Positions 1 to 64,000 of a DNA stretch of 64,000 nt are shown here, piece after piece. The translations under genes and the position numbers were made by a program. Numbering within the stretch: position 1 is the first letter of the stretch; every line of letters starts with the position of its first letter. The DNA is from a virus (taxonomy: Duplodnaviria; Heunggongvirae; Uroviricota; Caudoviricetes): the IMG/VR virus record IMGVR_UViG_3300029906_000160. One strand, written 5' to 3'. The notes below the pieces were generated by a model. It was given only the letters and a program-made list of their open reading frames with translations. It had not been told where the DNA came from and did not search any database.

Positions 1-156
1 TGTATATCTTGGCATATAAACAGGCTTTGCATTCATTGTTCTATTAATAGCTCTAACTGAACCATTAGCATCAGTATAAACCATCTTTGAACTCTTTACA
101 ACAGGTGTGCTATAAACAAACTTTGCACGTGAATCTTTTCCATTAAACTCTTTCAT
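1..156 (-). CDS. hypothetical protein, 3' end truncated by window edge (starts MKEFNGKDSRAKFVYSTP)
   Basis: ATG at 154-156 on the minus strand; open frame runs to the window edge. Confidence 0.35.
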   Translation of the reverse strand, partial: MKEFNGKDSRAKFVYSTPVVKSSKMVYTDANGSVRAINRTMNAKPVYMPRYT

Positions 157-160
157 AATT

Positions 161-349
161 TTACTTTTTAAAATTAAAATAAAAAATAATAAGTATTATT
201 GATAAAATAAGATCAATTATCATTATAAAAATAAGAGGACTAAGTATCCAAAACCAAGTCCAGCAAATTACTCCAGTGATTTGGAGAACTATAAAAAGGA
301 TGGTCAATAAAATTGCTAAATTCCATCCTGTACAACCTATTCTTGCCAT
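161..349 (-). CDS. small hydrophobic membrane protein (2 predicted TM segments)
   Basis: ORF track; strongly hydrophobic 62 aa. Confidence 0.4.
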   Translation of the reverse strand: MARIGCTGWNLAILLTILFIVLQITGVICWTWFWILSPLIFIMIIDLILSIILIIFYFNFKK

Positions 350-1071
350 GTAAAATAATATGGATTATAAGTCGGAATATATTGTTCGTTGAGATAACTT
401 ACTTGGCGTACTAAAGTACCATTTTCAGATTTTTCCCAATCATGATTAGCAGAATGTAGGTGCCCGCATAAACAATATTTTACTTTCTTATTTTCTATTG
501 CTTCTCTTAAAGGTTGATTTCCTATACTATATGGCTTTTTTCCTAATTCATACCAACCAAAACATTTATCGCACAATCCGTAAGGAGCATCGTGACTTAA
601 TACAATATCACAATTTTCTGGAATTTCAGAATATTTTTCTTTAAGTGCATCATCACTTAACATATTCCACCAATTTCCAAATATTGTACAATAAGGAGTA
701 CCAAAAATCTTTAATTCTTTTATACCTTCGTCATCATCAAGATATTCAAAAGTATATTCTTGATTATGAAGATATACAGCCCTTCCTTTACATGGAGCTA
801 TTATGTTAGAATAAACACTAGGTGATTCTTCTCCCTCTTGTGCGAGATAGACGCTATGATTTCCACTTATAAATATAACTTTACTCCATACATCTTTAAA
901 TGGAAGATTAAGAACCCATGGTACAAACTCGTTTTGATACCATTTCTTTTGATAATGATGATTGTGATTTTTAGCTGGTTCAAGATCTCCAGCAAGCAAC
1001 ATTAAATCAAATGGTTTAGTTATCTCCGGTAAATGACCATGAAAATCAGAACTAGCTACTATGTCTAACAT
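337..1071 (-). CDS. calcineurin-like metallophosphoesterase
   Basis: motifs SDFHGH, AGDLEP, SGNHS, SHDAPYG, CGHLH; no in-frame TGA; Trp written as TGG. Confidence 0.8.
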   Translation of the reverse strand: MLDIVASSDFHGHLPEITKPFDLMLLAGDLEPAKNHNHHYQKKWYQNEFVPWVLNLPFKDVWSKVIFISGNHSVYLAQEGEESPSVYSNIIAPCKGRAVYLHNQEYTFEYLDDDEGIKELKIFGTPYCTIFGNWWNMLSDDALKEKYSEIPENCDIVLSHDAPYGLCDKCFGWYELGKKPYSIGNQPLREAIENKKVKYCLCGHLHSANHDWEKSENGTLVRQVSYLNEQYIPTYNPYYFTWQE

Positions 1072-2696
1072 TAGTTACCAATATTTACGTCAACGATAGT
1101 CAACGGTGCGATTATACAATCAGTAGTTAAGAAGAGGTCAGTAATAGAAGCTGCATGTTCAACAGCAAGCCTATCTGCTTTAGCTGGATTTATAATACCT
1201 GCTTCATACATATCAACAAACTTTTCAGTATTAGCATCAAATCCTTTCCAAATAGATGGATCTTTTAGAATATCAAAAACAATGCTATTTAGAAAATCTA
1301 CTCCAGCGTTTTCACAAATTGTAGAAATAATTATTGGAAGACTTTCTATACATGCTTTATAGCCATTCCATTCGTCTTTATCTGAAATACTATCTGGATT
1401 AGACGTAATTTGGTATCCACATCTATAGAAATCCAATCCTCCACCAGCAATTATACCTTCCTCAATAGCAGCATAAGTAGCAGCAACTGCATCGTCTATG
1501 CGATCTTTGGTTTCCTTCATCTCAATTTCAGTTTTACCACCTACTTTTATACGAGCAATTCCTCCAACTAACATTGCAATTCGTCTCTTTAAGAAATCTC
1601 GATAAAATTCTCCATCCATCTGAGAATCTTTAATCTCAGTAAGTTTATTTTGGAGTTCTTTTACACGAGAATCAATCAAAGACTGAGCTCCTTCTCCATC
1701 TATAATAGTAGTAGTTTCTTTAGTTACTATAACTCTTTTAGCTCGACCAAGCATATCCATAGAACAATCAGAAACTTCAAGCCCAGAATCATAACTAAGA
1801 TAAGTTCCATCAGTAACTATTGTAATATCTTGAAGAACTTCTTTTCTGTATTCTCCCATAGATGGACATTTAATAGCACATACTTTAAGAGTTCCCTGAA
1901 GTTTATTAAGTTTTAAATTCTCAATAACTTCGGAATCATAATCCTGTGCTATAATTAAAAGACTTTTTCCATTCTTAGCAAGAGGTTCAAGAATATTTAA
2001 AAGATCTCTAGTTAACTGAATTTTATGGTCAGTAATAAAGATATAAGGATTTTCAAGAACGCATTCACCTTTTTCTTCATTAGTGATAAAATGTGGTGCT
2101 TCATATCCTCTATCGAATTGCATTCCCATTACAACATTACAAGTAGTTTCAGAGTTACTAGATTCTTCTACTGTTATTACTCCTTCTCTACCTACTTTCT
2201 TAAATGCGTCTGCAATTAATTCTCCTATTACTGAATCATTATTTGCTGATATTGATGCAACATATTTAATGTCTTCATCTTTAAGTTCACGAGCGTTTGC
2301 TTTTATATATTCTATTACTTGTTGAATTGCTCTATCAAAACCCTTTTTAAGCTTAATTGGATTTGCTCCAGCTTCTATCTCTTTATATAGAGCATTTATG
2401 AAGGCCTGAGCAAGAACAGTTGCTGTACTGGTGGCATCACCTACTTGTTGAACAGTACGAACAGCTGCTTCTTTTATTAATTGAGCACCAGCATTAGCAA
2501 ATTCATCAGCTAACTTAATAGATTTTGCTACTGTTACTCCATCTTTTGTTACATGTGGAATCTCATTAGGTTCAGTAATAATAACACTTCGACCTTTTGG
2601 TCCAAGAGTTACTTTAACTGCATCTGCTAAAAGATTAATGCCTTCAAGCATCTTCTTTCTCGCATCATTATAGAATTTTACTTCTTTATTTAGCAT
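1071..2696 (-). CDS. groL: GroEL-type chaperonin (Cpn60), phage-encoded
   Basis: 541 aa; canonical GroEL motifs ([13 protein letters not shown], equatorial/apical domain pattern); no TGA. Confidence 0.9.
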
Positions 2697-61922: not shown

Positions 61923-62079
61923 ATTGCGAAAGGCTAGTTATCACCGTAACGCGTAGTAATTGAATAAATATAATATTACCAAGAGTGCTCGACATCTAGA
62001 ACAGATGAAAATGTACGCTGAACTATAGAGAATAAGAATCTATAGAATTTAGAGATAAAAAACTCTAAAGATAACAAAA

Positions 62080-63261
62080 TTGGGTGATTCCGGAATTGCA
62101 CTTGCGGGATTATCTGAAATGTTTAATAATCCTCGTGCTTATAATGTATTACCTTACAAAAATAAATATACTCGTGATGGCAAGATTGCTTACACTGGTT
62201 TCTTCATTCCAGCTCATGAGTTCTCTTTAAATCCAGAATTTGTTGATTCTCGTGGAGTCACAGATTCCGTTAGATTTAAACAATGATATGAAGAACAACG
62301 AAAAAAGATGGAAGGTCAAGCTCTCTTAGATTATTGTGCAGAACACTGTTTTACTCCTGATGAAGCGCTTCTTAGACAAGGTGATAATATCTTTGACTCA
62401 ATTGTTATTTCTGAACGACTCACTCAAATTAGAGTATTTAAAGAAAATTATCAAAAACCTGAACCAACAGCACTTTTATGAGTTGGAGAAGAAAGAAAAT
62501 TTGTAAAAGCACAACCTCTAAGTACGAGTAAATTACTTGTTGTTGAACCTCCTCTTTTAGACATGGATGGAAATCCTTATAATAATTTATATGTTGCAGG
62601 AATAGATGCTATTGATATGGGTAAAGAAGATTCTGCTATAGATTCTGATGTATCTGATTTCTGCATTGTAATTAAAAAACGTGCATTTGGTATGGATTCT
62701 CCAAAATATGTGGCCATGTATAAAGATCGTCCACAGAAAATTAGAGATGCATACGAAATTGCTATGAAACTTTGTGTATGATATAATTGTAAAGCAATGT
62801 TGGAGTATACAAAAATATCTATACAAAAATACTTTGAACAATATAAAAAATCTCACTTATTTATGGCTCGTCCTGAATTTGCAGTATCGAATCGTGCAAA
62901 AAGAACCACAACTAAAAATCTTATTGGTTTACCTGCAACAGAATCTGTTATCAAGCATGGGTTGGAGTTAATCGAAATGTATGTTGAAGACTATTGACAA
63001 GATATTATGTTCGATGAAATGCTTGAACAACTTTTAAATTATTCTTATGAAGAAAAAAGAAAGTTTGATATTGTAGCAGCCTTATCAATGTGTGAGATTG
63101 GAGATGAAGCAATGCTGGGGTTCTCTGTTAAAAATGCTCAATCTACTAAACAAGAATGAAAAGACTACGGATATTATTATGATGAGAATGGGCATAAAAG
63201 ATTCGGAGTTATTCCAGATAAAAATAATAATATAATACAACCACCAAAATGACACTTTTAG
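62080..63261 (+). CDS. terL: terminase large subunit, C-terminal nuclease segment
   Basis: ..LLVVEPPLLDMDGNPYNNLYVAGIDAIDMGKEDSAIDSDVSDFCIVIKK.. (RNase-H-fold nuclease motif); several TGA read as Trp. Confidence 0.55.
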
Positions 63262-63560
63262 AACAAGAAATTCTTGATACTATTAACGAAGCTGTTGGAG
63301 GTAAATATATTGGTCAATTAAAAGTGTTTCATGAAGACAAAGTTGGATGAGTTCTTCTATTACACATGAACCAAGAACAAGCTCCAATGAATTTTGTATA
63401 TGATGGTACTTGAGAGCAGTTTAAGAAGTTCATTTATAACGAATTGCACTTTAGAAAAATGCATAAAGCATCTTTCTTTCAGGCAGTTCAAGAATTACCA
63501 TCGCTTATAGATAAGCATGGTGAATTAGAATTAGATTATGATACTGTAATAATCACATAG
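63249..63560 (+). CDS. hypothetical protein, 103 aa (2 TGA read as Trp)
   Basis: manual translation. Confidence 0.4.
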
Positions 63561-63561
63561 A

Positions 63562-64000
63562 ATGGACAAACAAAAAGAAATTGAAAGCATTAATAAATGT
63601 ATTCAAGATCTTGTCTACGAGAAAGTTGAGTTAAAAAAAGCTTATAACTATTATCACTGTATTCGAGATGCTGAACAATTTCGACATATAGAAGATAATT
63701 ATGGTATTGGTACACCAACATCAATCGGATTTACTCCACTTATCAAGAAGCATATTGATGTTTTAGTTGGTGAATATCTCGAATTAGATCCTGATTTGCA
63801 AATCACATGTAAAGATGAAAAGACAGTATCTAATATTATGAGAGATAAACAGTTAGAAATTAATAAACAAGTTTATAATTTATTAAAATCTAAATTACAA
63901 AATCTAATTGTACAGGTTTTTGTAGATAGAAAACAAGCAGCTAACGATCCTTATATAGAAAAGGAAATAGAAAAACTCAAAAAAGATATAGATAAAAATT
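63562..64000 (+). CDS. hypothetical protein (portal?), 5' part; continues beyond window
   Basis: open frame to window edge. Confidence 0.35.
   Translation, partial: MDKQKEIESINKCIQDLVYEKVELKKAYNYYHCIRDAEQFRHIEDNYGIGTPTSIGFTPLIKKHIDVLVGEYLELDPDLQITCKDEKTVSNIMRDKQLEINKQVYNLLKSKLQNLIVQVFVDRKQAANDPYIEKEIEKLKKDIDKN

Follow-up and report, generated by a model that had tools for sequence, protein, structure and literature searches.

We analyzed a stretch of 64,000 nucleotides (nt) of phage DNA, the IMG/VR record IMGVR_UViG_3300029906_000160 (the whole stretch is hereafter called the window), in which about a third of the genes contain in-frame TGA codons. Codon statistics and comparison with relatives indicated that TGA stands for tryptophan (Trp), and that the phage has effectively one genetic code together with a class of genes that is kept free of TGA by selection. 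The putative decoder is a suppressor tRNA with the anticodon UCA, in which a second anticodon-like arm presents a CCA loop. We regard this recoding and suppressor explanation as a whole as quite probable. The codon partition, the assignment of TGA, the architecture of the tRNA, and its conservation across a family are documented at the level of the sequence in the following sections.

Two classes of genes in the window

The window has a guanine plus cytosine (GC) content of 31% and contains 12 ordinary tRNA genes, one tRNA gene with a UCA anticodon, and one tmRNA-like gene. With TAA and TAG as the sole stops, 86 genes were called, which cover 79% of the window and include 95 in-frame TGA and 129 TGG codons. 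In the raw calls, 54 genes were free of TGA (104 TGG) and 32 contained it (95 TGA and 25 TGG). The in-frame TGAs of two of the latter, g043 and g050, are located upstream of the likely true start codon. The truly recoded genes were determined to be 30 of 86 (35%), and the remaining 56 have no genuine TGA and use TGG only.

The split was strongly bimodal. TGA/TGG heterogeneity among genes gave a chi-square of 187.9, compared with simulated values (20,000 binomial runs) that averaged 74.9 and reached 113.6 at most, and 24 of the 35 genes having three or more Trp codons were confined to one of the two codons. The coverage by open reading frames (ORFs) of at least 120 amino acids (aa) was 0.54 under code 11, 0.77 with TGA as sense, and 0.59 with TAG as sense. 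Sixty-seven genes ended with TAA and 17 with TAG, and none of the calls needed TGA as a stop. Furthermore, matches to Pfam and PHROG families extended across the TGA positions of recoded genes.

An earlier note on this DNA had proposed two gene classes, TGA-free and TGA-bearing, and these data agreed with it, as did the improvement of coding density when TGA was read as sense. Most of the class membership given there was also reproduced. All eight homing-endonuclease genes contained TGA (33 TGA and 4 TGG in total), as did the initiator-like gene g056, with one TGA inside its Pfam domain match, and the endolysin-like gene g069, with three TGA and one TGG. The genes for GroEL, ClpP, a 622-aa protein, AAA ATPases, and a metallophosphatase were TGA-free in the gene calls. 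The two plus-strand blocks described as recoded were TGA-rich, but the late one also includes stretches without TGA: g076 (GroES), g077, g078, and the 145 N-terminal aa of the portal protein. Two statements needed correction. One tail-fibre gene had been listed as recoded, but three of the four (g065, g066, and g068) carry one real TGA each. The partition had also been called unusual, but a comparable one was reported by Borges et al. (bioRxiv 10.1101/2021.08.26.457843; later Nature Microbiology).

TGA as a tryptophan codon

The reading of TGA as Trp, which the earlier note had favored, was confirmed by codon exchanges with relatives. In strains 96-98% identical to the window, TGA codons of the window corresponded to TGA at 29 positions and to TGG at four, and two TGG codons of the window corresponded to TGA. 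In a 177-kilobase (kb) relative (L001), the 29 aligned TGA codons of the window were matched by 17 TGA, eight TGG, and four other codons. A distant syntenic human-gut phage (MT835470.1) had TGG at six of the TGA positions of the window, tyrosine (Tyr) at five, and TGA at none.

Protein alignments indicated the same residue. Among 120 homologs of the C-terminal terminase piece, only three columns consisted of at least 70% Trp, and all three are TGA in the window; the remaining three TGA columns were aromatic or mixed. In the papain-like peptidase g064, TGA aligned with the Trp of the N-S-W-G motif, as the earlier note had claimed for this C1-type peptidase, and with the next conserved Trp (Trp181). 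Distant homologs of the M15 peptidase were uninformative and were rejected as evidence, as their residues varied at the three TGA positions. The density of Trp codons was 1.46% in the TGA class, with TGA counted, and 1.19% in the TGA-free class.

Decoding of TGA as another residue, namely glycine (Gly; code 25), selenocysteine (Sec), or serine (Ser), was considered highly improbable. ARAGORN labels the suppressor tRNA as SeC, and a long variable arm combined with the discriminator G73 comprises determinants of seryl-tRNA synthetase (SerRS). However, the exchange partner of TGA was TGG rather than a codon for Gly or Ser, in the close relatives as well as the distant ones, and TGA occupied invariant Trp columns of the terminase and papain families. 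In addition, the suppressor has a 7/5 acceptor/T arrangement, a D-stem of 4 base pairs (bp), and a Trp-type acceptor, whereas Sec-type tRNAs in the same scans were 8/5, and genes for SelA and SelB were absent from the window. Two points tell against the assignment to Trp: serylation of the suppressor is ruled out only indirectly, via the Trp columns, and some database homologs have been translated under an assumed code, with W or Q at the recoded positions. Therefore, the assignment leans mainly on the codon-level comparisons. On these comparisons TGA is Trp, and Gly, Ser, and Sec are unsupported.

A gene class kept free of TGA

The usage of TGA was compared with that of other codon pairs. In recoded genes other than those for endonucleases, the share of TGA among Trp codons was 0.78, and the A-ending share of Lys, Glu, Gln, and TTR-Leu codons was 0.78-0.86. 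In the endonuclease genes, the corresponding values were 0.89 and 0.86-0.91. Since the TGA share matched the A-ending share, TGA and TGG appear to be an ordinary synonymous pair under AT pressure in the recoded genes. In the TGA-free class, the A-ending share was 0.64-0.81, and about 80 of its 108 Trp codons were expected to be TGA, against no real one (log10 P of about -63). These results indicated that selection acts on the TGA-free class. Moreover, TGG is kept in a relative (L006): within the minus-strand TGA-free block at 337..34412, the TGG positions of the window corresponded to Trp in 34 cases and to a stop in one. The proposal of the earlier note that a subset of genes is kept TGA-free was therefore upheld. 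Its remark that the recoded class is rich in endonuclease genes was correct in that all eight bear TGA, but no special recoding of these genes was found. A special TGA enrichment of homing endonucleases was rejected, as their TGA share equals their A-ending share; judging from these codon pairs, they are merely unprotected from TGA.

An artefact, i.e. a chimera assembled from phages of code 4 and code 11 or a set of decaying pseudogenes, would also give two classes, and the bimodality itself, but nothing more, is in its favor. Its probability is practically negligible: the classes interleave gene by gene, gene order and codon classes recur in independent IMG/VR, ENA, and Logan assemblies, and the recoded genes match their families over the full length (M15 peptidase, residues 4-121; LAGLIDADG; terminase, profile positions 63-737). 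Assemblies from ENA, Logan, and JGI include contigs of 171-181 kb that encode terminase proteins near-identical to that of the window, and a related IMG/VR contig, 3300029904_000001, is 177 kb in length and shows protein identities of 50-97% to the window. Hence, the window is part of a large phage genome represented by several independent assemblies, and its source is a phage of about 170-180 kb. A megablast search with 12 kb of the window against GenBank phages gave no match, and a scan for relatives of g060 gave none.

Architecture of the suppressor tRNA

The suppressor tRNA(UCA) is encoded by 92 nt on the minus strand (4972..5063). ARAGORN called it as SeC with the anticodon tca, and it scored 52.4 bits with the Rfam tRNA model. 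Its minimum-free-energy fold was a five-arm cloverleaf with a class I-type D arm. The earlier note had recognized the UCA anticodon and the Trp-like D and anticodon arms, in agreement with ARAGORN, Rfam, and the fold. Its coordinates (4963-5052) were not correct, and it had overlooked the second hairpin, with its anticodon-like CCA loop, into which the extra ~20 nt fold.

The stems comprise a 7-bp acceptor, a 5-bp T-stem, and a 4-bp D-stem with a 7-nt loop. The body is of the Trp type, with A1-U72, G2-C71, G3-C70, G5-C68, and the discriminator G73, and the 3' CCA is not encoded. Hairpin 1 (5022..5038, minus strand; GCGGU-CUUCAAA-ACCGU) is located at the canonical position of the anticodon arm and presents the anticodon UCA at 5029-5031. 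Hairpin 2 (5001..5017, minus strand; GGGGC-CUCCAAA-GCCUC) occupies the position of the variable region. It has a 5-bp stem and the 7-nt loop CUCCAAA, which matches the anticodon loop of tRNA-Trp, with CCA at 5008-5010. Linkers of 4 nt separate hairpin 2 from hairpin 1 and from the T arm.

The bacterial identity set for Trp consists of G73, A1-U72, acceptor G-C pairs, and C34-C35-A36 (PMC9976931). The suppressor possesses the acceptor elements and G73, but its decoding anticodon is UCA and CCA is present only in hairpin 2. It lacks the 8/5 acceptor/T arrangement, 6-bp D-stem, and 4-nt loop of tRNA-Sec. Its long arm and G73 are shared with class II tRNAs, in which the long variable arm (through its orientation) and G73 are identity features for SerRS, but its D arm is class I-like. 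From its arms, the suppressor looks like a tRNA-Trp with a tandem duplication of the anticodon arm, the 5' copy of which was converted to UCA while the 3' copy kept CCA. We found no description of a tRNA with a second anticodon-like arm in the literature searched, although such absence is not proof of novelty. The sole apparent match, a speculative remark on a chloroplast tRNA-Ser, was rejected.

A family of dual-arm tRNAs

Viral contigs were scanned for similar tRNAs, with only the UCA arm required. All 26 distinct long non-Sec tRNA(UCA) genes with a 7-bp acceptor had an extra hairpin with a U-C-C-A loop, and these 26 represented several different D-arm and acceptor types. In contrast, none of the nine Sec-type tRNAs (8-bp acceptor and 6-bp D-stem) in the same scan had a UCCA arm, and the idea that the UCCAA loop is a general trait of long-arm UCA tRNAs was dropped. 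Bacterial tRNA-Sec genes with TCCAA were seen only in a scan that demanded TCCAA. Covariation was analyzed in 24 members, of which 19 came from the scan without that requirement and five from the scan requiring TCCAA. The loop U-C-C-A-A was invariant among them, and the stem of the extra arm was 96.6% paired, with all five pairs changing on both sides. The covariation score was 1.005, against 0.237 for shuffles (0 of 500 reached the real score) and at most 0.18 in slid registers. Similar tRNAs were present on contigs binned with gut Coriobacteriia, Oscillospiraceae, Treponema, Bacilli, and Clostridiales, and the coding density of several contigs that host dual-arm tRNAs increased strongly under code 4.

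In a further scan, the sequence of hairpin 1 was left free, and the D arm, the TCCAA loop, and the T loop were fixed. Nine additional members with UCA and one with CUA (L207) were obtained, and a second member with CUA (L208) was identified on a 144.6-kb contig in a metagenome scan. The phages with CUA dual-arm tRNAs have genomes of about 145 kb (L207/L209, IMG/VR 3300028805_000058 and Ga0310691_10000132; L208, JAEEGL013603757.1), and L208 additionally carries a 71-nt tRNA(UCA). In L206 and L207, a canonical tRNA-Trp(CCA) gene directly adjoins the dual-arm gene, and in L207 the acceptor and T arms are shared. A relative, L210, has a short tRNA(UCA) and, at 1211-1285, a tRNA called by ARAGORN with a UUA (ochre-type) anticodon and a poor fold.

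Two genes of L208 contain in-frame TAG, at five positions in total, and no TGG. Two of the five TAGs are in its GIY-YIG gene: one is located at the K-Y-G-W-D-N-F column, where 116 of 120 homologs have W, and the other at a column occupied by Y (85), F (15), and W (11). The three TAGs in the N-terminus of its tail-fibre protein fall on columns with Y, Y, and W in distant homologs and with Q in close ones, most likely because the databases assumed code 15 for the latter. A PDB search with this N-terminus gave no usable match. On these columns, TAG in L208 looks like a codon for Trp or another aromatic residue, not for Gln. Column statistics alone do not separate Tyr from Trp in the CUA phages, which counts against the reading of TAG as Trp. 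Nevertheless, Trp is favored by the Trp-type acceptor stem and by G73, which is an antideterminant for tyrosyl-tRNA synthetase (PMC9976931). The CUA phages may thus use a code with TAG as Trp. We tentatively propose, at somewhat less than an even chance, that the dual-arm suppressors form a widespread family, with a decoding arm of UCA or CUA and a CCA arm at the variable position for tryptophanyl-tRNA synthetase (TrpRS), and that reading of TAG as Trp is allowed in it. To our knowledge, such a code has not been reported for phages.

Host and promoter motifs

The promoter consensus of Bacteroidota is TTTG, a gap of 17-21 nt, and TAnnTTTG. We found 13 matches to this motif in the window, against 3.7 ± 2.0 expected, and none of 100 shuffles reached 13. 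Ten of the 13 are located just upstream of a correctly oriented gene. The genes preceded by the motif include the suppressor tRNA (5136..5167, minus strand, ~70 nt upstream), the tRNA cluster, the tmRNA-like gene (34758-34788, minus strand, directly upstream), three recoded endonuclease genes (8218-8249, 23244-23275, and 24733-24764, minus strand), the recoded endolysin gene (53459-53489, minus strand), and the initiator-like gene. The presence of host-type motifs in front of the suppressor, three endonuclease genes, and the endolysin gene suggests that any delay in the expression of recoded genes would act on translation, not on transcription. The distant relatives of the terminase were crAss-like phages and phages of Bacteroides, Flavobacterium, and Cellulophaga only. 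Taken together, the TGA-free constraint, the enrichment of promoter motifs, and the affinities of the terminase make a Bacteroidota host with the standard code likely, as the earlier note had predicted for the code. No gene for release factor 1 (RF1), release factor 2 (RF2), or TrpRS was found among the window proteins scanned.

A host that itself uses code 4 (e.g. Mycoplasmatota-like), with the TGA-free genes as recent acquisitions or a product of chance, is very unlikely. It would fit the low GC content, the strong use of TGA in a third of the genes, and the many phage tRNAs that any host already has. However, the TGA-free class is equally AT-biased, so that the ~80 TGA codons expected in it would be present, and none is. 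TGG is kept in the relative at 50-75% protein identity, and therefore conserved selection rather than recent transfer is indicated. Bacteroidota-type motifs are enriched just upstream of genes, the terminase groups with those of Bacteroidota phages, and the proportion of genes with TGA is 35% here, against ~90% in code-25 phages of code-25 hosts (Borges et al.).

Proposed mechanism and role of the second arm

The host, the timing of expression, how the suppressor competes with RF2, and what the second arm does are inferred from the features described above. In our model, the phage would infect a host with the standard code, and its own Trp-type tRNA(UCA) would read TGA as Trp. Genes needed before the suppressor accumulates, such as those for chaperones, proteases, ATPases, and metabolic enzymes, would remain TGA-free by selection, while the genes for virion, packaging, lysis, and homing-endonuclease proteins would drift to about 80-90% TGA. 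The TGA-bearing genes would be completed only once the suppressor outcompetes the host RF2. As several recoded genes and the suppressor lie behind host-type promoter motifs, the delay would be exerted at translation. In the tRNA itself, hairpin 1 would decode the recoded stop and the CCA loop of hairpin 2 would maintain recognition by the host TrpRS, so that decoding and charging are uncoupled.

The preservation of TrpRS identity by hairpin 2 comes close to an even chance, though not above it. The strongest argument for it is given by the CUA variants, as their decoding anticodon is without C35. C35 belongs to the identity elements of TrpRS, so that CUA should not be accepted, and the CUA mutant of Escherichia coli tRNA-Trp is charged with Gln (PMC9976931). 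The dual-arm CUA phage differs from that mutant in that its TAGs fall on Trp or aromatic columns.

Several observations weigh against the model. The division into early and late genes is imperfect: g056 and a few small genes of the 'early' block have TGA, and the glucosaminidase and tail-fibre genes are largely TGG. An arm at the variable position should not, from the geometry of tRNA, reach the anticodon-binding domain of TrpRS. Recognition of hairpin 2 by TrpRS would need an alternative stacking, in which the hairpins swap on the D-stem, or another binding mode. The long arm and G73 might instead attract SerRS. The syntenic relatives have an ordinary tRNA(UCA) of 72-78 nt at the same locus, and short phage tRNA(UCA) molecules inserted Trp in E. 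coli extract in 13 of the 13 cases analyzed (Seki et al.). Hence, the second arm is accessory and not required for UCA suppressors.

These same points, namely that the syntenic relatives and other phages manage with a short tRNA(UCA), that E. coli extract charges the short phage tRNA with Trp, and that a variable arm is badly placed for the anticodon-binding domain, would also be explained if TrpRS did not use hairpin 2 for identity. The hairpin might then be a tolerated remnant of the duplication, a mimic for another partner, or an alternative anticodon arm. Possible partners are T-box leaders, modification enzymes, and nucleases or defence factors of the host directed at tRNA-Trp; in the last case of the three, dual decoding, one tRNA could read UGG or UGA in two stackings. 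An explanation of this kind, by mimicry or dual decoding in particular, is possible but less likely than not. A neutral remnant is difficult to reconcile with the invariant UCCA(A) loop, which persisted despite compensatory turnover of all five stem pairs. Furthermore, the arm persists together with a CUA decoding anticodon, and TAG is still at Trp or aromatic columns in that phage.

Genes and other features of the window

The TGA-free block on the minus strand (337..34412) uses TGG only and is broken by endonuclease islands and a cluster of 12 tRNA genes (10864-18266). Its products include a metallophosphatase, GroEL, two AAA ATPases, a HAD phosphatase, an ADP-ribosylglycohydrolase, an IMPDH-family protein, an isochorismatase, ClpP, the 622-aa g026, a glucosaminidase, and an SPFH protein. 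The eight homing-endonuclease genes belong to the HNH (three), LAGLIDADG (three), GIY-YIG (one), and DUF559 (one) types. Six of them are located on the minus strand within this block: g010 (7111..8160; DUF559-type; 2 TGA and 3 TGG), the HNH gene g017 within the tRNA cluster (11266..11811; 6 TGA), the HNH_3 gene g018 (12226..12720; 2 TGA), the HNH gene g023 with helix-turn-helix domains (15755..16954; 7 TGA), and the LAGLIDADG genes g031 (22310..23200; 5 TGA) and g033 (23830..24702; 4 TGA). The latter five contain no TGG. Of the promoter motifs given above, that at 23244-23275 belongs to g031 and that at 24733-24764 to g033.

The endonuclease gene g010 lies between two halves of an IMPDH/GMP-reductase-family gene (6438-9047, minus strand) that is split by an intein. 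The half encoded by g011 ends in an N-intein (a Hint domain starting with C-F-V-A-G-T-K), g009 begins with a C-intein that ends in V-V-H-N and is followed by Cys, and g010 is free-standing between them. This arrangement resembles the split-intein 'fractured genes' of marine metagenomes. The IMPDH-family gene of the 177-kb relative seems to be uninterrupted, because the alignments are about as long as the extein parts only.

A tRNA at 14514-14585 (minus strand) scored 49 bits with Rfam, and its anticodon was left uncalled by ARAGORN ('ta'). If a 5-bp stem and the 7-nt loop AUUAUUA are assumed, the anticodon would be UAU, reading the Ile codon AUA, which is frequent in this AT-rich genome. The tmRNA-like gene (34430-34753, minus strand) was called by ARAGORN and scored 44 bits with the Rfam tmRNA model (E = 4e-15; gathering score, 47); its predicted tag peptide looks atypical.

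Iteron-like direct repeats, in three sets with periods of 16, 22, and 21 nt, occur at 36160-36481 (plus strand), just upstream of the HTH_36 initiator-like gene g056 (36575..37408, plus strand; one TGA at codon 42; Pfam match at residues 19-71). Both the coding strand and the GC skew switch in this region, which is probably a replication origin. It is followed by an island at 37400-41400 with a GC content of 38-44%, against 31% overall, that contains only short minus-strand ORFs (77-170 aa) readable under code 11. The two of these that were scanned, g058 (Pfam) and g055 (PHROGs), matched no family.

The plus-strand recoded block g060-g064 (41459..45314) contains 23 TGA and 2 TGG codons, and the papain-like peptidase g064 corresponds to 44745-45314. 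The tail-fibre genes g065-g068 (45364..53025, minus strand) encode Trp mostly by TGG, with 15 such codons in total, and TGA occurs singly in three of the genes. They are followed on the same strand by the M15 peptidase gene g069 (53025..53441), the GIY-YIG endonuclease gene g070 (53824..54567; 3 TGA and no TGG), and g071 (54557..54805), which encodes an 82-aa membrane protein, holin-like by position, with one TGA that is TGA in relatives too. In the strains 96-98% identical to the window, g070 is absent.

The late recoded block (55275..63560, plus strand) includes the PD-(D/E)XK nuclease gene g074, the terminase pieces, and the LAGLIDADG gene g083 (61023-61922). Apart from the endonuclease genes, the recoded class thus comprises the terminase pieces, g074, g069, g071, the papain-like block, and g056. 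The terminase large subunit is encoded in three pieces, g081, g082, and g084 (59575-63261, plus strand; 11 TGA and 1 TGG combined). A gap of 240 nt and an insertion of 1083 nt, the latter carrying g083, lie between the pieces. In the closely related strains (L185-L188), g082 runs on into g084 without a break, and g082 itself is interrupted at residue 58/59 by another LAGLIDADG gene (52% identical). These strains also have an extra endonuclease gene containing NUMOD1 (I-HmuI-like). No group I intron was detected by Rfam in or around the interrupted terminase gene, and therefore the insertions are termed intron-like only.

Comparison with known systems

Recoding itself is of a well-documented kind. 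Borges et al. described TGA as Trp in large low-GC gut phages with standard-code hosts, in which 26-71% of genes are recoded, structural and lysis genes included, and TGA is lost as a stop. Suppressor tRNAs were detected in only 35% of their code-4 genomes. The phage of the window resembles their Agate, Jade, and Sapphire clades in its features: it is a large low-GC phage with partial recoding (35%), TGA is not a stop, structural, packaging, and lysis genes are recoded in scattered modules, and a tRNA(UCA), TGA-rich endonuclease genes, and a predicted standard-code host are shared. The 171-181 kb of the relatives of the window also fall within the published genome-size ranges. Unlike in those clades, the 'code-change module' of RF1 and TrpRS was not found in the window, and all eight endonuclease genes, of four families, are recoded. 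The preference of an Agate group I intron endonuclease for TGA was read by Borges et al. as a delay of endonuclease production, whereas the codon-pair statistics obtained here point to a lack of protection from TGA, not to a special preference. The second, CCA-looped arm of the suppressor is not mentioned in their study.

Among tRNAs, the suppressor shares A1-U72, G73, a G-rich acceptor, the anticodon arm GGU-CUNCAAA-ACC, and the T arm with canonical tRNA-Trp. It differs from it by its tandem anticodon-type arms, with UCA (or CUA) in the decoding arm and the cognate CCA moved to the variable position. Like class II tRNAs and tRNA-Sec, it has a long extra arm before the T arm, and with tRNA-Sec it also shares the UCA anticodon, G73, and the SeC label. 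Unlike tRNA-Sec, it has 7/5 acceptor/T stems and a 4-bp D-stem instead of 8/5 and 6 bp, and its amino acid is predicted to be Trp. The extra arm is also distinguished from those of class II and Sec tRNAs by its 5-bp stem and its 7-nt loop with the invariant UCCA.

The leader of E. coli thrS contains an operator hairpin that mimics an anticodon arm and is bound by threonyl-tRNA synthetase (PMC9976931). It is similar in that a copy of a cognate anticodon loop outside the decoding position of a tRNA is recognized by the synthetase via its identity rules. That mimic regulates translation of the synthetase mRNA, whereas the arm described here lies within a tRNA and is proposed to serve charging. 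In the plastid of Balanophora, TAG is Trp throughout the organelle and is read by an ordinary tRNA. In the CUA phages, too, TAG seems to stand for Trp or for another aromatic residue, but the phage case is deduced from five TAG positions in two genes of L208.

The quantitative addition made here is that the 'second code' is the neutral state and that selection acts on the genes readable under the standard code. Further work seems most worthwhile on the dual-arm suppressors, including the CUA variants and the code in which TAG may be Trp. ARAGORN labels dual-arm tRNAs as SeC or Pyl, and other tRNA finders may mislabel or miss them, which may help to explain why a suppressor was detected in only about a third of the code-4 genomes. 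Some phages, such as L208, possibly read TAG as Trp while databases translate it as Gln. If the CCA arm is an identity tag, it would be a naturally evolved means of having a suppressor charged by an anticodon-reading synthetase, the same charging problem that is faced by engineers of genetic-code expansion.

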